DNA from: Alphaproteobacteria bacterium
Lineage (GTDB): Bacteria > Pseudomonadota > Alphaproteobacteria > UBA6615
Reading direction: 5' to 3'
Assembly (NCBI GenBank): GCA_046759605.1
Contig: JBHICL010000001.1
Location: forward strand, 1 to 43,694
DNA: 43,694 nt
Positions 5,974 through 41,731 of the stretch are shown here, piece after piece. Each line of letters starts with the position of its first letter. Within the stretch, counting starts at the first letter, position 1. The notes beneath the pieces are model-generated. The model had not been told where the DNA came from. It made no database searches and saw only the letters and a list, made by a program, of their open reading frames with translations. A program made the translations under genes and the position numbers.

Positions 5974-7308
5974 CTAGAGCAGCATGGCCAGCGGGTCCTC
6001 GATGAGCTTCTTGAAAGCGGCCAGGAACTCGGCGCCGACCGCGCCGTCGACCACACGGTGGTCCACCGAGACGGTGCAGGACATCACGGTCGCGATCGCG
6101 AGCGCCCCGTCCTTCACCACCGACCGCTTCTCGCCCGCACCCACGGCCAGGATACAGCCCTGGGGCGGATTGATGATGGCGCCGAACTCCCGCACGCCGA
6201 ACATGCCCAGGTTGGAAACCGAGAAGGTGCCGCCCTGGTACTCCTCGGGCAGGAGCTTGCCTTCGCGCGCCCGGCCCGACAGCTCCTTCATCTCCTGGGA
6301 GATCTCCCTGAGCCCCTTGGCGTCCGCGGCGCGGATGACCGGGGTCACGAGCCCCCCTTCGATGGCCACGGCCACCGAGATATCCGCCCGGAGGTAGCGC
6401 TTCGTCCCCTCCTCCGACCACGACGCGTTGGCCGCCGGAACCTGACGGAGCGCCAGCGCCGCGGTGCGGATCACGAAGTCGTTCACCGACAATTTGTAGG
6501 CGCCGTCGGCGCGGTCGTTGAGCTCCTTGCGGATCTCGAGAAGCCGGTCGATTTCGCAGTCCATCGTCACATAGAAATGCGGGACCGTCTGCTTGGCTTC
6601 GGTCAGGCGCCGCGCGATGATCTTGCGCATCGTCGTGTGCGGCACCAGCTCGAACTCGGGCTCGCCGACCATCGGAATCTCGGTTGCCGGGGCGCGCGCG
6701 ACCGGAGCCGGAGCCAGCGCCGGGGCCGCCACCGCCGGAGCCGCGACCTGGAAAGCCTCGATGTCGGCCCTGACGACGCGGCCGTGTGGGCCCGTGCCCT
6801 TCACCTGTGCGAGATCGATGCCGGCCTCCTGCGCCATGCGGCGGGCCAGAGGGCTCGCGAAGATGCGGCCATCGCCGTCGCTGGGCGGCGAAACGGGCGC
6901 GGGAGATGGTGTGGGCGCTATCGGCTGCGCGGGAGCCGCCGGCGCCGCCGGGGCGGCGGCGGGGGTGGGAGCGGCAGGCGCCGGGGCCGGCACGGCCTCC
7001 GCCGCGGGAGCACTGGCTGGCTGTGGCGCCGCCGTCTCGAACCCGGCCAGGGCCGAGGGGTCCTCCCCTTCCTCGAGCACCACCGCGATCGGGGTGTTGA
7101 CGGCCACGCCCTCGGTGCCCTCGTCCACCAGGATCTTGCCGAGCACGCCGTCGTCGATGGCTTCCACCTCCATTGTGGCCTTGTCGGTCTCGATCTCCGC
7201 GATCACATCGCCCGAGGACACCTCGTCGCCCACGGACTTGAGCCACTTCGCCAGCGTGCCCTCGGTCATCGTTGGCGAAAGCGCCGGCATCAGGATCTCT
7301 ATGGGCAT
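5974..7308 (-). CDS. pdhC: pyruvate dehydrogenase complex dihydrolipoamide acetyltransferase (E2)
   Basis: N-terminal lipoyl domain ([17 protein letters not shown]...[10 protein letters not shown]), Ala/Pro linker, E3-binding segment and catalytic DHRVVDGA. ATG 7308 is preceded by AAGGGGGAA. Confidence 0.93.
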   Translation of the reverse strand: MPIEILMPALSPTMTEGTLAKWLKSVGDEVSSGDVIAEIETDKATMEVEAIDDGVLGKILVDEGTEGVAVNTPIAVVLEEGEDPSALAGFETAAPQPASAPAAEAVPAPAPAAPTPAAAPAAPAAPAQPIAPTPSPAPVSPPSDGDGRIFASPLARRMAQEAGIDLAQVKGTGPHGRVVRADIEAFQVAAPAVAAPALAPAPVARAPATEIPMVGEPEFELVPHTTMRKIIARRLTEAKQTVPHFYVTMDCEIDRLLEIRKELNDRADGAYKLSVNDFVIRTAALALRQVPAANASWSEEGTKRYLRADISVAVAIEGGLVTPVIRAADAKGLREISQEMKELSGRAREGKLLPEEYQGGTFSVSNLGMFGVREFGAIINPPQGCILAVGAGEKRSVVKDGALAIATVMSCTVSVDHRVVDGAVGAEFLAAFKKLIEDPLAMLL

Positions 7309-7319
7309 ACGGTTCCCCC

Positions 7320-8705
7320 TTACGACCGGTAGCAAGCGGCCTTGGCCGCCGCGACAACCCCCTCGGTCTGCGGGATCGCCAGCCGCTCGAGATTCGCGGC
7401 GTATGGCATGGGCACATCGGCGCCCGTCACACGAGCCACCGGTGCGTCCAGCCAGTCGAAGGCCTGCTCCATCATGAGCGCCGCGATCTCGGCGCCGATG
7501 CCCGCGTAAGGCCAGCCCTCCTCGACAGAGACCAATCGGCTGGTCTTCCTGACCGACGCCACGATGGTCTCGGTATCCAGAGGCCGCAACGTCCGCAAAT
7601 CGATCACCTCGGCGCTGATGCCCTCCGCCGCCAGCACTTCGGCGGCCTCGATCGCCCGCTGCACCATCAGCGAGAACGAGACGATGGTCACATCGCTCCC
7701 CTCGCTGAGGACCCGGGCCCGGCCCAGCGGCACGGTGAAGTCGTCGTCCGTCGGCACCTCGAAGCTTTGGCCATAAAGGATCTCGTTCTCGAGGAACATG
7801 ACGGGGTTCGGGTCGCGGATCGCCGACTTGAGGAGGCCCTTGGCGTCCGCCGCCGCGTAGGGAGCCACGACCTTGAGAAACGGGCAGTGCGCGTACCAGC
7901 TGCTGTAGTCCTGGGAGTGCTGGGCGGCGACGCGCGCCGCCGCCCCGTTGGGTCCGCGGAACACCACGGGGCAGTTCACCTGGCCCCCGGACATATAGAG
8001 GGTCTTGCCGGCCGAATTGACGATCTGGTCGATGGCCTGCATGGCGAAGTTGAAAGTCATGAACTCGACGATCGGCTTGAGGCCGGCAAAGGCGGCGCCG
8101 ACGCCGACGCCGGTGAAGCCATGCTCGGTGATCGGCGTGTCGATGACCCGCCCGTCGCCGAACTCGTCCAACAGACCCTGGCTCACCTTGTACGCGCCCT
8201 GATACTGGGCCACCTCCTCGCCCATCAGAAACACTTCCGGGTCGCGCCGCATCTCCTCCGCCATGGCGTCACGCAGGGCCTCGCGCACCGTCAGAGTGGT
8301 CGTGGGTCCCGTGTACTCGGCCTCGGCCGGAGAGACCATGGCGGGCGCCGGCGGCGCCGTCACGGCGGCTGGGGGCTCCGCGGCCGGGGGCGGCGTCGGC
8401 TCAGCCGGCGCCGGAGCCGGTGCGGTCGTCGCGGTCGCCGCCTCGACGGCACCCGCCTCCTCGCCGTCGCCGAGAAGAACGGCGATCGGCGTGTTCACGG
8501 CAACGTTCTCGGTGCCCTCGGCCACGAGGATCCTGCCCAGGATACCCTCGTCCGCGGCCTCCACCTCCATCGTCGCCTTGTCGGTCTCGATCTCGGCGAT
8601 GACGTCGCCGGAGGACACCGCGTCGCCTTCGGCCTTGAGCCATTTCGCCAGCGTTCCCTCGGTCATCGTGGGCGAAAGCGCCGGCATCAGAACCTGGATC
8701 GGCAT
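7320..8705 (-). CDS. pdhB: pyruvate dehydrogenase E1 beta subunit with N-terminal lipoyl domain
   Basis: 461 aa: a lipoyl domain ([10 protein letters not shown]) and Ala/Pro linker fused to a transketolase-like E1-beta core ([16 protein letters not shown]...). This architecture is typical of alphaproteobacteria. Confidence 0.95.
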
Positions 8706-8758
8706 CCCTCTCCCCGTTCAGGAAAATCGTCTCCGGGCCCGCTCGGATCGGGGCCTGG

Positions 8759-23842: not shown

Positions 23843-24550
23843 ATGCTTACCAGAAAACAATACGAACTTCTCGTCTACATCAACCAGTACTTGTCGGAGA
23901 ACGGAGTCTCTCCCTCGTTCGACGAGATGAAGGATGCCCTGGGGCTGAGGTCGAAGTCGGGTATCCACCGCCTGATCACGGGTCTCGAGGAAAGGGAATT
24001 CATAAAGCGGCTGCCGCACCGGGCACGGGCGCTCGAGGTGCTCCGGCTGCCGGAGGACGTTACCGTCGACAGGGGACGGCGACCGGCGCGCTTCGACCCT
24101 CAGGTGATCGAAGGCGGGTTCCCCTCCGGTCGCGGCGCGGAGGACGTGCCGCCCGGACAGGACGACAGGGCGGTCCCGGTTCCGCTGCTGGGCCGCATAG
24201 CCGCGGGCACGCCGATCGAGGCGCTCAGGGATACCTCCCATCTGGTCGGCATCCCCGCCGCGCTCTTGGGAAGCGGTGAGTACTACTGCCTCGAGGTCGA
24301 AGGCGACTCCATGGTGGATGCCGGCATCCTCGACAACGACGTCGTCGTCATCGAGCGTTGCGATACGGCGGAGAACGGCTCCATCGTCGTGGCCCTGGTG
24401 GAGGCACAGGAGGTCACTCTCAAGCGCCTGCGCCGACGGCACAATTCCGTGGCGCTCGAGCCTGCCAACCGCAATTACGAAACTCGGATATTCGGACCCG
24501 ATCAGGTGGAGATCCAGGGGCGGCTGGTCGCCCTGGTACGCCGCTACTGA
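23843..24550 (+). CDS. lexA: LexA repressor
   Basis: 235 aa: winged-HTH N-terminus ([17 protein letters not shown]...), Ala-Gly cleavage region [11 protein letters not shown], and S24 peptidase Ser (VEGDSM) and Lys (TLKRL). Confidence 0.95.
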
Positions 24551-26775
24551 CCCCCCGATCTCTCTCGACGACCTGCTACAGGTACCCAGGGACGGCGACC
24601 GCGAATCTCGTTCGCGCTCTCGACACGGACGCCGGACGCGTCCGCTTGCGGGGACGTGAGCCAGAAGGCGTGGCCGCCGTCCCGCCAGAGGTCGAACCGG
24701 TCGACCACGATCACTGGTCTCGAGCACGCCCGGGGCACCGCGACGGTGGCGATCACCACGTCGGCGCGGCGGCAGTCTTCGACCAGCGCGCGTTCGTCGC
24801 GAACGAGCGCGACGACCCGATCGTGGGCGCGGTAGATACACCCGAGGCCGTCGCACCGTAGCCGGCCGTCGGACGAGAGGCCGTCGCGGGGAAAGGTCGT
24901 CCAGGTGTCCACCCCTGCGCTGCGCAGCCAGGTAACACGGCTGAACGGCGCCGCCCGCCGGCTCGACACGAGGTAGCCGCCATCGGCGCCGCGTACGGCA
25001 GCGAGCTTGCCGTCGCCGGTGATGAGCACATCGGCCGGCCGGGTCAGGCCCAGCGAGGCCAGTCCGGCCAGCACCGGGAGCAGCCCGAAGCAGCGCCACC
25101 GCCGTCTGAGGAGCATCAGCCACAACCCACCGGCGACGATGGCGACATAGCCGGCGAGGGGCATGGCGGGCGCCAGCTCGACCGAGCCCGGCCAGGAGGC
25201 GACCACGTGGGCGGTCGCGATAACGCCGTCGAGGCCCCACCCCATGGGGATGAGCGCCAGACCCTCGAACCCGAAAGGCATCAGGGCGAACGCGGCCACG
25301 GCCCAGGGCATCACCCACAGCGCGGTCAGCGGAACCGCGACAAGGTTTGCCGCCAGGCCGAACACGGCGACGCGGCTGAAGTGGAAAAGGGCGACGGGCA
25401 TCGTGGCGAGCCCCGCGATGAGCGTCGTCAGGGCGACGCCGCCGAGGTACAGCCCCGCTCGCTCGGCCAGACCGGCTTCGCGGTACCATATGCGCAGTCT
25501 GTCACCCAGCGCCTCGTAGACGGCCACCAGCGCCAACGCGGCGGCAAAGGACATCTGGAAGCTGGCGCCGAGCAACGTTTCCGGCCGCAGAACCAGGATC
25601 ACGACGGCCGCCCAGGCGACCAGGCGCATCGAGATGCCGGTGCGGTCGAGCATGACCGCCAGCAACACCAGTCCGGTCATCATGAAGGCGCGCTGCGTCG
25701 GCACGGGCGCTCCGGCCAGGAGGAGGTAAGCGAAGGCGACAATCAGGGCGATGGCGGCCGCCCACTTCTTCACGGGATAACGCAAGACCACCGCCGGCCA
25801 CAAAGCCAGGCCACCGCGGATCGCGAAGAACACGATCCCGGCAACGAGGCCGATGTGCAGACCCGAGATCGCCAGCAGATGCGCCAAGCCGGAATCGCGC
25901 ATGGCGGTCAGGGTCTCCGGCGGAATGGCGCCCCGCTCACCCGTCATCAGGGCCGCCGCCACGCCACCCGTGGCGCCCTCGAGGCTCGCCGTCACGCGTT
26001 CGAAGATCACACGGCGCACGCCGGCTATCCGGCGCGCGCTGGCCCGTCTCCAGCCCAATTCCATCTGCCCGGCCGGCCGAACGACCGTCGGTCGACCGAA
26101 GGCAAAGCCGACCGCTCCGATTCGCTGGAACCACGCGCGCCGCTGGAAATCGAAGCCGCCGGGTATCGCCGGCCCGGGCGGCGGCACCAGCGCGGTGCGC
26201 AGCGTGACCAGATCGCCCGCACCGACGTGCGGGACACCTCCACGCGCCCAAACCCGCACACGGACGCGCGCCGGCGTTTCGTGCTCGTCGAGCCGCCCTA
26301 TCTCCAACGCCTCGAGGACCAGGCGATATGCGCCGGCCATGGGGTCGATCTCGGCCACCAGGCCCGTGATCTCCACTCCGCGAAGCTCACGGGTCAACAC
26401 CGGCGCCGAGACCAGCGCACCACGCAACTGCGCGGCCGCGAAACCGGTGGATGCGCCGGCCAGGGCAAACGCCACGAGCAGCGCTCCCGGCCACCGCCCG
26501 TCCGACCCTTGGCGAAACAACAGCGCCAGCACGCCGAGAGAACCGACAACCGCCAGGGCACCGAGCCAGCCTGGCGGCTCGGCATGAAGAGCGAAGTACC
26601 CGGCTATGCCGCATCCCAGGGCCACAGGCAGCCAAAGCGCCCACCGATCGCGCTCCGCGGCCAGCTCGGCGCTCAGCCACCGCCGCAAGGGACGAACGGC
26701 CCGCTCCGCGTGCCCCTCCCACGGCTCGCGCGGCGTCGCCGTCATGACCGGCGCCGCCGGCTGTTTCGACGCCAC
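24544..26775 (-). CDS. comEC: ComEC/Rec2 family DNA internalisation channel protein
   Basis: 743-aa polytopic membrane protein with the competence-domain motif [14 protein letters not shown]. Convergent with lexA (7-nt overlap). Alternative start at 26745. Confidence 0.88.
26363..26418. repeat. 56-bp comEC-internal segment (copy 1) that recurs at 27826-27881
   Basis: Aligned by eye: 53/56 identical to 27826-27881. It encodes ComEC residues [19 protein letters not shown]. Confidence 0.9.
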
Positions 26776-26845
26776 GCGCTGTCCGGGGGAGGAGGCGAAG
26801 GAAGGGATTTACTGGCTGACAACGTTACCCGACACCAGGATGAGC

Positions 26846-26897
26846 AGCACGCCCCCTGTTTGAGAGACAAACCGCCGTTGTGCTACACACCGCTCAC
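26846..26897. repeat. 52-bp direct repeat, copy A (left border of insertion; native comEC-gltX spacer sequence)
   Basis: agcacgccccctgtttgagagacaaaccGccgttgtgctacacaccgctcac is 51/52 identical to 27888-27939. It contains the palindrome GTTTG-agaga-CAAAC (26858-26872). Confidence 0.95.
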
Positions 26898-26907
26898 GCG
26901 CTGGGCC

Positions 26908-27369
26908 CTATGCAGCCTGGCGTTCCTCCTCCCAACCGCTCTCAGCTTCCTTGAATATGGCGGCTTCTGTCTGCTCAAGCTCGTCTAGTTCCTTTAGCAA
27001 CTTGACGATCCGCTTGGCACGGGCGTGTCCGACTTTCTCCAAGGCATAGAACAGCCTCAAGAGGCGGTCAGCGGGTCCGTTAATTGCCTCGCTAGGCTTA
27101 CCCTCCCAGCGGGCAATCGTGGACCGCGTGACATCCAGTATCTTGGCTAGGGTACCTTGAGAGATGCCCAGCATGGACCGCAAGTATCGTAGCTCCTGTC
27201 CCCGTATGCGCCGGGGGGAGGCGATAATCATCATGGCGATGACATCATGCAGACCGTCCATGTCCTCGATGGTTATAGACGGGCCGTGTTCGGTCTGCTT
27301 CTCTGTGAACCCGTTCGCCAGGTACACATAGTCTAACCCACATCCCGTGTAGTGGTGGCAGTTGTTCAT
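26908..27369 (-). CDS. putative antitoxin: MqsA-like / XRE-family HTH protein with degenerate N-terminal zinc-ribbon-like domain
   Basis: 153 aa from ATG 27369 (MNNCHHYTGCGLDYVYL...). Classic XRE HTH: GQELRYLRSMLGISQGTLAKILDVTRSTIARWEGK, followed by ADRLLRLF. The ATG overlaps the upstream gene's TGA (ATGA at 27366-27369). Confidence 0.65.
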   Translation of the reverse strand: MNNCHHYTGCGLDYVYLANGFTEKQTEHGPSITIEDMDGLHDVIAMMIIASPRRIRGQELRYLRSMLGISQGTLAKILDVTRSTIARWEGKPSEAINGPADRLLRLFYALEKVGHARAKRIVKLLKELDELEQTEAAIFKEAESGWEEERQAA

Positions 27370-27704
27370 CTTAGCCAGTCCATCCATTCCACTGTCCGAA
27401 CGTAAAGACGTTCGCCCTCCCTGAAGATGACGGTTACGACCCCGGCTTCTCTCGTGCCGGGCATTCGTTTCGTCATGATGACCTTCCAATCGCCATGGTC
27501 GAGCAGTTCTGGTTCGCCTTCAACATGGCCGGTACGTAAAATTCGCAGAACTTCCACCGTCGTGATAGCCCTCTCGTCTTGCCGCTCCAGGGCATGCGGA
27601 TGCCAGCCAATGTTGCTTGTATCTCTTGCTCGCTGGTGAACCAGTTCTTCGGCTTGGTCTGCTCGCAGGTTGTCCCAATGGATAGGTCGCTTCCGAAAGG
27701 GCAT
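27366..27704 (-). CDS. putative toxin: DUF4258-like small protein (HAxxRxxxRxI motif)
   Basis: 112 aa from ATG 27704 (MPFRKRPIHWDN...). WHPHALERQDERAITTVEVLRILRTG and the later GVVTVIF resemble my recollection of the DUF4258 pattern. Alternative ATG at 27770. The track ORF start at 27863 is a comEC-derived GTG. Confidence 0.6.
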   Translation of the reverse strand: MPFRKRPIHWDNLRADQAEELVHQRARDTSNIGWHPHALERQDERAITTVEVLRILRTGHVEGEPELLDHGDWKVIMTKRMPGTREAGVVTVIFREGERLYVRTVEWMDWLR

Positions 27705-27726
27705 CGGGTCGTCATGATGTGCTATT

Positions 27727-27751
27727 TTGATACAACCTGTTCCATTATCAA
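27727..27751. promoter_or_regulatory. perfect 6-bp inverted repeat TTGATA-N13-TATCAA in an AT-rich stretch upstream of the toxin ATG (candidate operator/promoter)
   Basis: Read directly. It lies 23-47 nt upstream of ATG 27704 in the lowest-GC part of the island. On the minus strand TTGATA could serve as a -35, with CAAAAT 16 nt downstream as a -10. Confidence 0.35.
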
Positions 27752-27825
27752 GTGTATTAAAATGGTACATCCAAAAAGGGCGTGCACCGACCAAGCTGGG
27801 AGAGGTACAGGCGGTGAACAGTTCC

Positions 27826-27881
27826 CCCGTGATCTCCACCCCGCGAGGCTCACGGGTCAACACCGGCGCCGAAACCAGCGC
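27826..27881. repeat. 56-bp comEC-derived fragment (copy 2) at right edge of insertion
   Basis: 53/56 identical to 26363-26418, in the same orientation. It is joined through the 6 nt ttaagt to repeat copy B. The minus-strand reading frame is closed by TAA at 27882-27884. Confidence 0.9.
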
Positions 27882-27887
27882 TTAAGT

Positions 27888-27939
27888 AGCACGCCCCCTG
27901 TTTGAGAGACAAACCTCCGTTGTGCTACACACCGCTCAC
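27888..27939. repeat. 52-bp direct repeat, copy B (right border; immediately upstream of gltX)
   Basis: 51/52 identical to 26846-26897. It ends 18 nt before the gltX ATG; GAGGA lies at 27944-27948. Confidence 0.95.
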
Positions 27940-27957
27940 ACCCGAGGACAAGCGTGA

Positions 27958-29358
27958 ATGACAGTCGTCACCCGGATAGCGCCCTCGCCGACCGGATTCC
28001 TCCACATTGGCGGCGCCCGCACGGCGCTGTTCAACTGGCTGTTCGCACGCCACCACGGAGGCACGTTCCGGCTGCGGATCGAGGACACCGATCGGGCCCG
28101 CTCCACGCCCGAGGCCATCGACGCAATACTGGACGGGCTCAGCTGGCTCGGCATCGACTGGGATGGAGATGTGGTTTACCAGTCGCGCAACAGGGAGCGC
28201 CACCGGGAGCTGGCACTTGCGCTTCTGGAAGCGGGCAAGGGCTACCGCTGCTACGCCACGCCCGAAGAGCTGGCCGAGATGCGTGAGAAGGCGCGCGCCG
28301 AGGGAAGGACCAGGCTCTACGACGGTCGTTGGCGCGAACGCAATCCCGCGGAAGCGCCACCGGGCATAGACCCCGTGGTCCGCATCAAGATGCCGTCCGG
28401 CGGCGAGACCGTCATCGATGATGACGTCCAGGGTATCGTCCGCGTCGCCAACGACCGGCTCGACGATTTCGTCCTGCTGCGGGCCGATGGCACGCCTACC
28501 TACATGTTGGCGGCGGTCGCCGACGATCACGACATGGGCATCACGCACATTATTCGCGGCGACGACCACCTCAACAACGCTGTGCGCCAGTATCACCTCT
28601 ACCGCGCCCTCGGCTGGGAGGCGCCCAGGTTCGCTCATATTCCCCTGATCCACGGGCCCGACGGCGCCAGGCTGCAGAAACGCCACGGAGCACTTGGCAT
28701 CGGTGCCTATCGCGATATGGGCTACCTGCCCGAGGCCATGCGGAATTACCTCGCGCGCCTGGGCTGGAGCCATGGCGACGACGAGATATTCACGACCGAT
28801 CAGGCGATCCGGTGGTTCGGCCTCGATGCCGTGGGGCGATCGCCCGCCCGTTTCGATCTCGCCAGGCTGGACAGTCTCAACGGCCATTACATCCGGGCCG
28901 CCGACGACCGGCGTCTGGTGGACCAGATCCTGCCGAGGATCGAGGACATGCTCGGCCGGTCGCCGGATGCCGCGATGGTCGAGCGGCTGATCAAGGGCAT
29001 GTATAGCTTGAAGCAACGCGCAAAGACCCTGGAAGAACTGGCTGAAAAATCTATGATATATTGCCGCTCGGCCCCTTTGCCGATCAGCGAGAAGGCGGCC
29101 CGACTGCTGGACAGCGAGGGTCTCGGGCACCTGGGTGGGCTGGAGCCCCGGCTGAGGGCGCTGGAGCGCTGGGGCGAACCGGAGCTGGAGGCGGCAATAC
29201 GAGAATACTGCGAAACCGCCGGTGTGAAGCTCGGAAACGTAGCTCAACCCTTACGCGCAGCACTCACGGGTTCGACCGTTTCTCCGAGCGTTTTCGAGGT
29301 CATGGAGGTGCTTGGGCGCGAGGAGGTGCTGGCAAGGGTCTCGGCGGTCACCGGGTAG
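27958..29358 (+). CDS. gltX: glutamate--tRNA ligase
   Basis: 466 aa with the class I HIGH region ([20 protein letters not shown]) and the GluRS core ([29 protein letters not shown]). Confidence 0.95.
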
Positions 29359-34360: not shown

Positions 34361-35395
34361 CTAGTGCCCTTGAGTCTTTCCTCGCTCCTTCGCCAGTCTG
34401 GCAAGGGTCGCGACCTGGCGGAAGAAGTCTCGTACGGGAACCGCCGGTGATCCGACGATTCTCGAACCGGCGGGAACATCCCGCATAACGCCGCCCTGAG
34501 CGCCGACCTGGGCCCCCTTGCCAACCCGGAGGTGGCCCGCCACGCCCGACTGAGCGGCAAGCACCACGTGATCCTCCAATCGGGTACTGCCGGACACACC
34601 GGCCTGGGCCACGATAACGCACCCCTTGCCGGTTTTCACGTTGTGTCCGATTTGAACCAAATTATCAATCTTGCTGCCCGCTCCAATAACCGTATCCGTG
34701 CCCGCGCCGCGGTCGATCGTGCTGTTCGCGCCGACCTCCACCTCGTCCTCGATACGCACCAGGCCGAGCTGTGGCACGTCGAGGTGACCTTTCGCATCCA
34801 TGTCGAAGCCAAAGCCGCGCTGGCCTACCTGAACGCCGGGATGAATCAAGACGCGCTCGCCAACGATACAATGGCTCAGAGTCGCGTTGGGACCAATCTC
34901 GGTATCGGCGCCGATCTCAACGTTCGCCTCGACGACAGCGTTGGCGCCGACAAACACGCGTGGACCGAGCCTGACTTCGGGACCAATGACGGCTCCGGCC
35001 GCGATCGAGCACCCTTCTCCGATCTTGGCCGTGGGATCCACATGAGCGGCGGGATGGATACCGGGCCGTGGCAGCTCGCGCGGGTAGAAAGCCCGTGCGA
35101 TGCGGGCATATGCGCGGTAGGGACGCCTGCTGAGGAGAAGGGCCATACCCTCGGGAGCCCGGTCCGCAAGCGCCGGCTCGACCACACATGCGCCGGCGCG
35201 GCTCGTTTGGAAAGCCTCCACGTAGCGACGGTTGTCAAGGAAGCTGACGTCGTCCGGTCCAGCGACCTCGAGTGGCGCCACGTCGCGAAGTTTCTTTTCC
35301 ATAGGGGCTTCGGGGCGAAGCTCGGCCTCCGCTATCCGGGCCAGCTTCGCGAGAGTGAAAGGGCCGCGATTGGTAAAGAACCGTGGATCAGCCAT
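34361..35395 (-). CDS. lpxD: UDP-3-O-(3-hydroxyacyl)glucosamine N-acyltransferase
   Basis: 344 aa with a LpxD N-terminal domain followed by long hexapeptide repeats. Confidence 0.93.
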
Positions 35396-35411
35396 GACCC
35401 CGTCGCATCCG

Positions 35412-35990
35412 CTACTGCTGCGGCGAATTCTCGGTAACTTCTATTTTGACGGATGGAAGTCGTTGGTCGAGCCGGGACAGCGCAGTTGCCGTGAAGTCGG
35501 ATACATTGCGGGCGAACACGATCTGCGACCGCTGCAAGACGACGTTCACACCTTCCTCACGAGCCATCTTGCCTATCTCCTCGAACAGCACATTCTGAAT
35601 CTGCCGCATCGAGGATTCGAACGCCCCATCGAGCACACGCCGCACCTCCTGCACCCGACGGTTCAGACCGGCCGCGTCCTTCTGAAACTGCTCGCGCCGC
35701 TGGGCGTAGATCTCGGGCGCCAGGATGGTCCGTTGCTGCTGAAGCTCCCGCTCGACGGCGCGAAGCCGGTTTTCCTCCTCCGAGATCTCCTGGCGGTACC
35801 GGGCCTGGATCTGCTCGAGCTGCTCCCGTGCGGTCGCCACGGCGCTCGCCTCGCGCATGACCGCCTCGATGTCCACCACCGCTATGACGGCGGCGCTCTG
35901 CCCGTCCTGCGCCATTGCGCCGCCCACGGCAAGGTGAATCGAGCCAAAGGCGCAAACGATCAATGCGCGGAACAAAGAGGTCTGTACCAT
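35412..35990 (-). CDS. skp: OmpH/Skp family periplasmic chaperone
   Basis: 192 aa with a signal peptide and a coiled-coil Gln/Arg/Glu-rich body. Conserved bamA-skp-lpxD position. Confidence 0.8.
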
Positions 35991-39628: not shown

Positions 39629-40447
39629 TCAGGTCTGAAACAGTGACCAGCCACCAAATGCAACGATCACAGCGAGGACGGGGGCGGCGAATATCAGGCT
39701 ATCGATGCGGTCCAGCACGCCGCCATGCCCTGGAATGAGAGCACCCGAGTCCTTGGCGCCGAAGCGCCGCTTGACGGCCGACTCGAACAGATCACCGAAC
39801 TGCGCGACGACAGCCAGAATGCCGGCAAGACCCCCGGCCAGCCATTGAGACGCGCCGGTGAACGCAGCCGCAATGAAGGCTACGCCCGCGGCTACGGCAA
39901 GCACGATGCCCCCCAGAAAGCCGGCCCAAGTCTTTCTAGGGCTCACCGTCGGCGCCAGCCTCGGCCCCCCTATGAGCCTGCCGGCGGCATAAGCGCCGAC
40001 ATCGGTCGCCGAGACGACGGCGAAGAGCCACAGCACGGCCCAGCGTCCCGCATCCGGGACGTCCCTCAGATAAAGGATGGCAATAGCCGGAAGGCCCAGA
40101 TAGGCCATGCCGCCCGCCGCCCAGGCCATGCCGTCGGCACGTGCCAAGCGGCCGCCCACCAGAACGAACACCAGCCCCGCGATGAGAGCCAGCGCAGCGG
40201 CGTCGACTCCACGGAAACTGGCCAGTAGTGCCACCAACGGCACAAGGAGCATGAGCGCCGTTCGCACAAACCCGGGTTTCAGGCCGCACAGGCGCGCCCA
40301 CTCGAACGCGGCCAGGATGACCGCCGCCGTAACAAGGGCCAGGAAGAAGGGGCCACCGAGCCAAGCCGCGACGACTGTCATGGGGGCAAGCGCGATGATG
40401 GAAGCGACGCGGAGCGCAAGATTGGATGGCGGAGCCTTAGACGCCAC
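39629..40447 (-). CDS. cdsA: phosphatidate cytidylyltransferase
   Basis: Polytopic membrane protein with the signature GDLFESAVKRRFGAKDSG...IPGHGGVLDRIDS. A GTG start at 40447 (272 aa) overlaps the uppS 3' end by 11 nt. The ORF is open to 40534. Confidence 0.88.
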   Translation of the reverse strand: MASKAPPSNLALRVASIIALAPMTVVAAWLGGPFFLALVTAAVILAAFEWARLCGLKPGFVRTALMLLVPLVALLASFRGVDAAALALIAGLVFVLVGGRLARADGMAWAAGGMAYLGLPAIAILYLRDVPDAGRWAVLWLFAVVSATDVGAYAAGRLIGGPRLAPTVSPRKTWAGFLGGIVLAVAAGVAFIAAAFTGASQWLAGGLAGILAVVAQFGDLFESAVKRRFGAKDSGALIPGHGGVLDRIDSLIFAAPVLAVIVAFGGWSLFQT

Positions 40448-41171
40448 AGGCTCCGTACCGCCGCTCCCGACGCCCGTACTCCCTGATGGCCTCGAGCAAG
40501 TTCTCCTTGCCGAAATCGGGCCACAGGACGTCAAGGAAAACCAGTTCGGTGTAGGCGAGCTGCCACAGCAGAAAATTGCTCAGCCGCTGTTCGCCGCTCG
40601 TACGTATGAGCAGATCCGGATCGGGGATGCCGGCGGTGGTCAGGCGGCTCTCGATCAGGCCCGAGTCGATGTCGCCTGCGGTCAGGTCGCCTGCGTGCAC
40701 CTCCCCCGCCAGCATTCTGACGACCTCGACCAGTTCCTGGCGGCCGCCATAACTCAGCGCCACGATCAGGTTGAGCCCGGTGTTCTCCGCGGTTCGCTGC
40801 TCTGCAGCGGCGATCAGCGACACGATATCGTCGGCCAGTTTCTTTCGGTCGCCGATGACACGAACGCGAACGTTGTTGGCATGAAGCTCGGCTATCTCGC
40901 TCCGCAAATAGCGACGCAACAGCACCATGAGGTCGTCGATCTCATCGCGCGGTCGCCTCCAGTTTTCGGAGCTGAAGCCGAACAGGGTGAGGTAGGATAT
41001 TCCAAGTTCGCCGGCGGCACGCACCGTGCGGCGCACCGCGTCCGCACCATAGCCATGCCCGGCGGCCCGGGGCAGGCTCCGTTGTCTCGCCCAGCGCCCG
41101 TTGCCGTCCATGATGACGGCAACGTGCACGGGCACCACAACGGCCGCCGGATCGGGTCGGGGAGACTGCAT
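40437..41171 (-). CDS. uppS: isoprenyl transferase / undecaprenyl diphosphate synthase
   Basis: Motifs HVAVIMDGNGRWA, LTLFGFSSENWRRP and RTSGEQRLSNFLLWQLAYTE. Confidence 0.95.
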   Translation of the reverse strand: MQSPRPDPAAVVVPVHVAVIMDGNGRWARQRSLPRAAGHGYGADAVRRTVRAAGELGISYLTLFGFSSENWRRPRDEIDDLMVLLRRYLRSEIAELHANNVRVRVIGDRKKLADDIVSLIAAAEQRTAENTGLNLIVALSYGGRQELVEVVRMLAGEVHAGDLTAGDIDSGLIESRLTTAGIPDPDLLIRTSGEQRLSNFLLWQLAYTELVFLDVLWPDFGKENLLEAIREYGRRERRYGACGV

Positions 41172-41176
41172 TGGCC

Positions 41177-41731
41177 TCAGACCTGCATGATCTCCTGTTC
41201 CTTGGTGGCAAGCATCTCGTCGATATGCTTGACGTGCTCGTCCGTGAGCTTCTGGAGGGCCTCCCCGCGGGTGTGGTGCTCGTCCTGCGAGATCTCTCCG
41301 TCCCGCTCCATGTGCTTGAGCGAATCCATTCCGTCCCGGCGGACGTTTCTCACCGCAACGCGTGCCTGCTCGGCATAGCGTCCGGCGACGCGGGTAAGCT
41401 CGACGCGGCGTTCCTCGCTAAGCTCCGGCACCGGAACCCTGATGAGATTGCCCTCGGGTTGCGGATTCAGGCCTAGATCGGACTCGTGGATCGCCCGCTC
41501 GACGGCTTTGACGAGGGAGTTGTCCCACACCTGCACCGTCAGCAGCCGGGGTTCGGGAACGCTGATGGTCGCCACCTGATTCATCGGCATCTGGGAGCCG
41601 TAGGCCTCGACCGCGATCATCTCCAGAAGCCCGGTGGACGCGCGGCCGGTGCGCAGCCCGGCGAACTCCCTGCGCAGCACTTCGACGGCGCCGTCCATTC
41701 GTCGTTTGAGGTCATCGAATTCCGCGGACAC
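41177..41731 (-). CDS. frr: ribosome recycling factor
   Basis: 184 aa with an RRF-like sequence ([34 protein letters not shown]). Confidence 0.95.

Follow-up and report, generated by a model that had tools for sequence, protein, structure and literature searches.

A toxin-antitoxin operon framed by partial copies of a host segment in the comEC-gltX control region of an alphaproteobacterial contig

How does a toxin-antitoxin (TA) operon, with no recombinase gene beside it, come to lie in the control region between two divergent host genes, and why are pieces of host sequence repeated at its borders? The question is raised by a 43,694-nt stretch of what appears to be an alphaproteobacterial metagenome-assembled genome (MAG; GenBank assembly GCA_046759605.1, contig JBHICL010000001.1, positions 1 to 43,694 of the forward strand; hereafter the window), in which a foreign cassette of 928 bp (26898..27825, minus strand) separates comEC from gltX. 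In a 2020 review, the integration of TA systems into genomes is described as "unelucidated to this day" (PMC7167474). Our preferred reading, to which we give a probability of about 0.5, is that a 0.93-kb TA operon entered the comEC-gltX control region, that a 535-bp target was duplicated, and that 424 bp were then lost from the right copy.

The host sequence to the left of the cassette consists of three contiguous parts: F, 56 nt inside comEC (26363..26418), which would be the left edge of the duplicated 535-bp target; M, 424 bp (26419..26842) comprising the comEC 5' end, its start codon and the upstream region, present in the left copy only; and R (copy A), 55 nt of spacer on the plus strand (26843..26897). 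On the right side of the cassette lies F' (27826..27881), a copy of F that persists as a non-coding relic; it is followed by the trinucleotide TTA (27882..27884) and by a second plus-strand copy of R, termed R' (copy B, 27885..27939), which adjoins gltX. In the comparison of the window sequence with itself, R and R' are identical at 53 of 55 positions, and F and F' at 53 of 56. The 52-bp direct repeats (51/52 identical) described in the initial annotation are real and extend 3 nt further at their start, and its comEC-internal copy was borne out in both position and identity. Two of its details required revision. The 6-nt joint given as "ttaagt" is actually TTA, the remaining "agt" aligning with the "agc" that opens R, and the stretch missing from the right-hand copy is 424 bp (26419-26842) instead of 427 bp (26419-26845), as seen in the alignment of 26330-26925 with 27795-27965. 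F' and R' are collinear with the contiguous F-M-R and share its order and orientation, which suggests that they are the outer parts of a duplicate of a single 535-bp segment (26363-26897). The M/R junction reads caccaggatgAGCAGCAC and the R/gltX junction CCGCTCACacccgaggac; the right end of the cassette is gtgaacagttcc, and the sequence that continues after F in an undeleted copy is accacgcaactg.

The repeats stand out clearly within the window. A 27-nt core of R occurs exactly twice at up to three mismatches, with matches in 0 of 100 shuffled sequences; the uniqueness that is usually asked of a whole genome was covered over the 43.7-kb window, which contains these two copies. Besides a paralogous lipoyl-domain pair, the window contains no long repeats other than R/R' and F/F' (at least 35 nt, identity above 90%). 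The lipoyl pair is a 261-nt direct repeat (7061-7321 and 8458-8718) of 82% identity and reflects domains of adjacent pyruvate dehydrogenase genes, one E1-beta-like with an N-terminal lipoyl domain and the other E2. Excision of 26898-27939 leaves a comEC-gltX spacer of 140 bp measured from the GTG at 26775, or of 170 bp from the in-frame ATG at 26745, in agreement with the roughly 140 bp anticipated earlier, and other Alphaproteobacteria typically have a spacer of such a length.

The borders bear little resemblance to those of a transposon. The duplication, at least 55 bp, is far above the 2-14 bp of transposon target sites, as the initial annotation had stated. Its claim that terminal inverted repeats, integrase and transposase are lacking also holds: long terminal inverted repeats are absent apart from a 7-nt match that appears for one choice of boundary, and Pfam scans of the 30 larger open reading frames (ORFs) of the window and the four ORFs of the locus returned no integrase or transposase. 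The 7-nt match concerns the block formed by the cassette plus F' (26898-27881), the ends of which are perfectly inverted (GCGCTGG at 26898-26904 and CCAGCGC at 27875-27881); its chance probability is 1.7e-4 for boundaries set in advance, and several choices of boundary were possible. Three of the junctions lack microhomology and one carries a 3-nt filler, namely the TTA junction of the 424-bp deletion, where microhomology is likewise absent.

The segment between the repeats differs from its surroundings in composition. The GC content of the cassette ranges from 0.49 to 0.585, compared with 0.67-0.76 in comEC and 0.63-0.69 in gltX; at third codon positions, the cassette has 0.65 and host genes have 0.72-0.92. 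These values support a foreign origin, and the earlier description of a foreign segment without a recombinase, flanked by copies of host sequence, stands. The cassette contains two minus-strand genes that overlap by 4 nt (ATGA), the toxin coming first, so that the toxin stop overlaps the antitoxin start. The predicted toxin (27366..27704, minus strand) has 112 residues and matches DUF4258 (PF14076) with 25.7 bits against a cut-off of 25. The predicted antitoxin (26908..27369, minus strand) has 153 residues, or 159 with the start at 27387 of the public gene call, and is an MqsA-like protein with an XRE-type helix-turn-helix (HTH). It matches HTH_3 (E = 1.2e-5, 25.6 bits against a cut-off of 23), the MqsA family TIGR03830 (E = 1.5e-8, under the cut-off of that model) and, over its full length, phrog_5119 (E = 6.8e-28). 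The cassette terminates 10 nt past the antitoxin stop codon. At its other end, an AT-rich leader contains the predicted promoter of the operon (27724..27751, minus strand; TTGATA, 16 nt, CAAAAT) and a TTGATA...TATCAA dyad; in a strict E. coli-type scan, this promoter was the sole sigma-70-like match in 26600-28100, shuffled sequences giving a mean of 0.3. PADLOC returned no defence-system match. Among solved structures, the best match had E = 0.03; those of the antitoxin were restricted to the HTH region, and the single match of the toxin was unrelated.

The BECR-fold (RelE/ParE-type) toxins of type II modules include DUF4258 as one of their families, and fusions of DUF4258 with MqsA are known (PMC11980606). 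The cassette shares with these modules the Pfam toxin domain, an HTH antitoxin with MqsA similarity and the two-gene operon. The toxin gene comes first here, whereas antitoxin/toxin is the order listed for the DUF4258 family in that work; moreover, the toxin score barely exceeds the Pfam cut-off, and the CxxC pairs of the N-terminal MqsA zinc ribbon are not evident in the antitoxin.

Relatives of the antitoxin are rare, 73 being found in 5.8 billion proteins with a top identity of 59%. In five (L083-L087) of seven loci that represent three of these relatives, the antitoxin homolog is immediately preceded by a toxin homolog (a DUF4258-type or 115-aa gene), and L088 and L089 have no called gene at that position. 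The toxin is 48-51% identical to the genes upstream of the antitoxin in L083 and L085. The surroundings of these homologous pairs vary and include other TA pairs, transposases and housekeeping genes. Members of the antitoxin family at 33-39% protein identity occur on a few plasmids, and the family is also represented in a phage protein family. At the DNA level, the cassette had no match among plasmids, the comparison with viral contigs gave nothing, and an exact-protein look-up of the toxin returned no record. Of the earlier suggestion to look for the same cargo at other loci and for a donor, the first part was realised by related pairs elsewhere (antitoxin identity at most 59%) but the second was not, plasmids having yielded no DNA donor match. 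Two sequence hallmarks of a type II module are present, namely small, adjacent, co-oriented genes for a toxin-family protein and a DNA-binding antitoxin, and a pair conserved as a unit across unrelated contexts. Because its relatives reach at most 59% identity, the pair recurs in varied contexts and family members reside on plasmids and among phage proteins, we read the cargo as a putative type II TA operon that is self-contained, rare and mobile.

The comEC-gltX arrangement itself is widespread. The two genes are divergent neighbours in about 63 of 80 alphaproteobacterial loci, and their spacer measures 350 bp or less in about 54 of these 63. In the two nearest ComEC relatives (58% identity), the order lpx-gltA-gltX-comEC-lexA-moeA is kept, the spacers are 87 and 229 bp long, and there is no cassette; at this distance, a -10-like motif is all that aligns with R. 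The comparison bears out the earlier expectation in that the nearest ComEC relatives are compact and cassette-free, so the arrangement in the window is not common to them. Because these spacers are compact and empty, and because the excised spacer of the window would measure 140-170 bp, the cassette is best regarded as an insertion in this lineage.

The closest public sequence is a 1637-bp contig (L081) of the Kiloniellales MAG GCA_046759805.1, which is 99.63% identical to 25064-26700 and ends at 26700, before the spacer and 45 nt short of the comEC ATG. Accession prefixes suggest that this sister MAG stems from the project that produced the window. It has no GltX, GltA or antitoxin on record, its assembly being broken on both sides of the locus. 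GltX of the window gave no record in an exact-protein look-up, a search with its N-terminal fragment yielded no protein longer than 277 aa and did not recover the window's GltX itself, its cluster has one extra member (P0315) that is unrelated to the window, and a scan of GTDB species with GltX gave a best match of 69% identity, so that the collection holds no close relative. A 22-mer of R had no matches in JGI metagenome contigs, and protein searches show that neither the species nor the cassette is represented in that collection. The sister contig does cover F: at position 26377 it has C, as in F', and because it shares this F' allele, one of the three F/F' differences represents a recent change in the comEC of the window. 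Read in the comEC frame, one of the three would replace Leu with Pro.

In other lineages, the content of the spacer varies. A low-GC alphaproteobacterial MAG has a different TA pair at this place (L028:5223-5892), with a PIN-like toxin split by a run of N and an RHH-like antitoxin, both assigned by visual inspection of the translations. A glutaminyl-tRNA synthetase-like gene (glnS) occupies the spacer in three further loci (L001:4162-5886, L016 and L068), and the carriers include the closest GTDB relative, a Kiloniellaceae MAG. The comEC-gltX spacer seems to be a recurrent landing place. A sign that the wider neighbourhood tolerates insertions too is an IS1595-type transposase gene situated between comEC and lexA in the nearest ComEC relative (L090:6369-7298).

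The position of R suggests why a repeat might have been retained on both sides. Read from the sequence, R contains TTGAGA, 16 nt, and GCTACA (26860-26865 and 26882-26887 in copy A; 27902-27907 and 27924-27929 in copy B) and ends about 8-10 nt past the second box; from the end of R' to the gltX ATG there are 18 nt. The sequence tGCTAnA, which we take to resemble the alphaproteobacterial housekeeping -10 element, is found at a similar distance upstream of gltX in two other loci (L090 and L091), and the 80 nt preceding gltX contain GCTANA in 22 of 80 loci (28%), compared with 2.2% of random background windows. R thus probably carries the gltX promoter, and the cassette would have been inserted close to where gltX transcription begins. 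Transcription from copy A would now run into the cassette from its 3' end, in the antisense direction, and read-through from the cassette would enter comEC. Overlapping the promoter-like boxes, R also shows a nested dyad, AGCAC-N7-GTTTG-AGAGA-CAAAC-N7-GTGCT (26846-26884 and 27886-27928), the outer arms of which are extended to 7 bp (GTAGCAC/GTGCTAC) by a C-to-T change in copy B. A dimeric regulator of both gltX and comEC might use this dyad as its operator. A mechanism driven by hairpins was considered and rejected, as F and R fold no better than shuffled sequences and R' alone does (z = -2.6).

In the history that we favour, the TA operon would have entered at about the gltX transcription start without any enzyme encoded by the cassette, and the insertion would have duplicated the host target 26363-26897 to give the order comEC...F-M-R, cassette, F'-M'-R', gltX. 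An end-joining-type deletion with the TTA filler would then have removed the 424 bp of M' and left F'-TTA-R'; what disappeared would be a truncated comEC 5' end with its upstream region, facing into the cassette. gltX is an essential gene. Because of this, and because R carries the likely promoter, the duplication would have been both seen and kept: only insertions that leave a promoter copy beside gltX would survive, and R' would be that copy. TA addiction would in addition oppose the loss of the cassette by recombination between the repeats. As the physical route, a single crossover that depended on RecA seems likeliest to us, its partner being a circular or circularised DNA in which the cassette lay beside a copy of the host segment. 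Such a crossover is a known source of the order host segment-insert-host segment and would account for copies that were never fully identical; the other candidate route is break repair with fill-in. Insertion plus deletion makes two events, the fewest possible. Of the two models offered in the initial annotation, the one with a larger duplication followed by an internal deletion likewise involves fewer events, fits a published class and is to us the likelier. The 535-bp length of the original duplication, the order of the events, the promoter role of R and the physical route are what we infer.

Several observations weigh against this history. The 535-bp duplication is reconstructed from two remnants that total 111 bp, and the promoter assignment consists of motif matches only, the strict E. 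coli-type scan not having called R. No conspecific empty site was found, the sole near-identical sequence being the sister contig that stops before the spacer. The copies differ at 5 of 111 positions, or at 4 after discounting the single-nucleotide polymorphism (SNP) specific to the window, and these 4 differences in 111 nt are about 10-fold above the strain divergence of 0.37%. Given this excess, either the event is old and precedes the separation of the two strains, or the right copy derives from a donor that had already diverged, and the latter would speak for a route driven by homology. As for generality, long flanking repeats were found neither around the homologous cassettes elsewhere nor around the other enlarged comEC-gltX spacers (including L028, L001, L016 and L068), and even for restriction-modification (RM) systems, long target duplication has no established mechanism.

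The divergence between the copies is also where a different origin gains some ground. If the donor was already composite, with the structure R-cassette-F'-TTA, as in the other model of the initial annotation, one homologous crossover within the 55-bp R would give a product identical to the observed layout, only R having been duplicated here, and the 3-5% difference between the copies would fit a slightly diverged donor. Such a donor could be a circularised fragment, or a plasmid that gained and partly lost host DNA in a related strain, and the occurrence of the antitoxin family on plasmids and in a phage protein family indicates that vehicles exist. We consider this origin unlikely, as at least two earlier events in the donor (the capture of host DNA and an internal deletion) must precede a crossover in 55 bp with two mismatches, and no composite donor was found, either through the antitoxin or among plasmid DNA. 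The junctions, in turn, would suit one complex event of break repair or template switching near the gltX start, in which the cassette, the 56 nt of comEC, 3 nt of filler and R again were joined in succession. The three junctions without microhomology, the one with filler, the 7-nt inverted ends of 26898-27881 and the dyad symmetries in both F and R are all consistent with it. However, we know of no documented patchwork capture of this kind in bacteria; the hairpins, R' excepted, are no more stable than shuffled ones, and the 7-nt match emerged from several possible choices of boundary. Copies made in this way should also have been identical at birth, yet 4-5 of 111 positions differ, and we hold such an event to be rather improbable.

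Direct repeats of about 50 bp around foreign DNA are typical of islands made by integrases (PMC2853133), and TA pairs are common island cargo according to the 2020 review (PMC7167474). R might on these grounds be the attachment (att) site of a decayed integrative element, standing as attL and attR after the integrase and the rest were deleted and the addictive TA pair remained. We regard this as very unlikely: the window has no integrase, R lies outside tRNA, tmRNA and known RNA, the deletions must have spared both att sites and stopped 10 nt after the antitoxin stop, and the host-derived F' lies inside the element beside attR, which site-specific integration does not produce. The window appearing to be a MAG contig, and one sister MAG being fragmented around the locus, an assembly artefact or a strain chimera was weighed as well. 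The copies differ by SNPs and, at 55-56 nt, are well under the read length; an assembler cannot invent four junctions, the flanking and cassette genes are intact, and the layout is internally coherent, which together leave an artefact the least credible of the explanations. An insertion with target duplication and subsequent deletion remains our preferred account.

The flanking genes are undamaged. comEC (24544..26775, minus strand, with the alternative in-frame ATG at 26745) encodes the DUF4131 and Competence domains (Pfam E = 4.6e-65 and 2.6e-16), and gltX (27958..29358, plus strand) encodes glutamyl-tRNA synthetase with tRNA-synt_1c (E = 5.1e-90) and Anticodon_2 (E = 6.4e-33). That both divergent genes retain their upstream DNA, as the initial annotation had noted, is confirmed, R standing beside comEC and R' beside gltX. 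The other genes examined in the window are all housekeeping genes, namely those of the pyruvate dehydrogenase complex, eno, pyrG, tpiA, trpD, moeA, lexA, gltA, lpxB/I/A, fabZ, bamA, rseP, pyrH and tsf. No tRNA or tmRNA gene was found in the 43.7-kb window, and no Rfam family in or near the repeats. Two long plus-strand ORFs (34532-35437 and 40107-41378) have host-like third-position GC and no Pfam match; housekeeping genes are expected thereabouts, and these ORFs may be wrong frames or unannotated genes.

Most chromosomal TA pairs show no trace of their arrival, and at this locus four readable junctions are kept. They point to a duplication of host sequence, not to transposition or site-specific integration, and, as concrete sequences, they offer targets for screening reads of the population concerned. 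The locus further shows how a cell can withstand an insertion where an essential gene begins, presumably thanks to the duplicated promoter. Being one case that lacks an empty site from its own species, it has the weight of an anecdote; it fits an existing class and defines no new one. By analogy with that class, lone TA cassettes may use a recombinase-free route with long target duplication, and the duplication would permit landing in the promoters of essential genes; we hold this generalisation to be doubtful, and if it were true, the locus would be a rare young scar of a general mechanism that is independent of DNA-cutting cargo.

Among known systems, transposons, insertion sequences and miniature inverted-repeat transposable elements are recognised by terminal inverted repeats and a target duplication of 2-14 bp, a combination that the cassette lacks. 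Integrase islands share with it the foreign DNA between direct repeats of about 50 bp. They differ in possessing an integrase and an att site in a tRNA, a tmRNA or the 3' end of a conserved gene; here there is neither integrase nor tRNA target, R is part of a probable promoter region, and the "island" includes a piece of the adjacent host gene. Campbell-type insertion-duplication comes closer, with foreign DNA between host segments in direct orientation and no enzyme from the element. It differs from the present case in that there is no vector backbone or known donor circle here, and the homology would be either 535 bp, later partly deleted, or just 55 bp. The lone TA insertions of E. coli, ccdO157 between folA and apaH and mazEF between relA and mazG, resemble the cassette, as described in the 2020 review, in that a TA pair stands alone between core genes, is missing from related genomes and shows no obvious association with a mobile element. 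Flanking duplications are not mentioned in the passages of the review considered here (PMC7167474), in contrast to the long duplicated host flank seen here.

The closest counterpart is the "insertion with long target duplication" of RM gene complexes (Nobusato et al. 2000, Gene 259:99; Furuta, Abe & Kobayashi 2010, PMC2853133). RM modules without mobility genes are flanked by target duplications of 30-420 bp, with tabulated values of 45-47 bp and 370-423 bp (PMC2853133; PMC3874152). The initial annotation had called the scar unusual; the layout is real, but it is not unprecedented in view of these duplications (PMC2853133). Three of the five properties listed by Furuta et al. 2010 are found here, namely a complete module with both ORFs intact, an insert (928 bp) of less than 20 kb without mobility genes, and direct repeats longer than 30 bp; the empty site and the genome-wide uniqueness of the repeats are supported in part at most, and none of the five is contradicted. 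The class requires an empty site in the same species, whereas the comparison here is with relatives at 58% ComEC identity. Both cases share a small addiction-type module, the absence of integrase and transposase, direct repeats of the host target and a deviant GC content (PMC2853133). The repeats of the RM cases are unique in the genome; those described here have just their two copies in the 43.7-kb window. The differences are that the right copy has an internal deletion of 424 bp, that the target includes the likely promoter of an essential gene, and that the cargo is a TA pair instead of an RM pair, without a DNA-cutting enzyme that could break the chromosome. For RM modules, DNA breakage by the restriction enzyme was suggested to take part (PMC2853133). 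Because a toxin of the RelE/ParE-type fold could not cut the chromosome in the way that a restriction enzyme might, a host pathway would be needed here. The pattern is thus one already known for a sister class of addiction modules, the RM systems, of which the comEC-gltX locus is one further case, with a TA operon as cargo.

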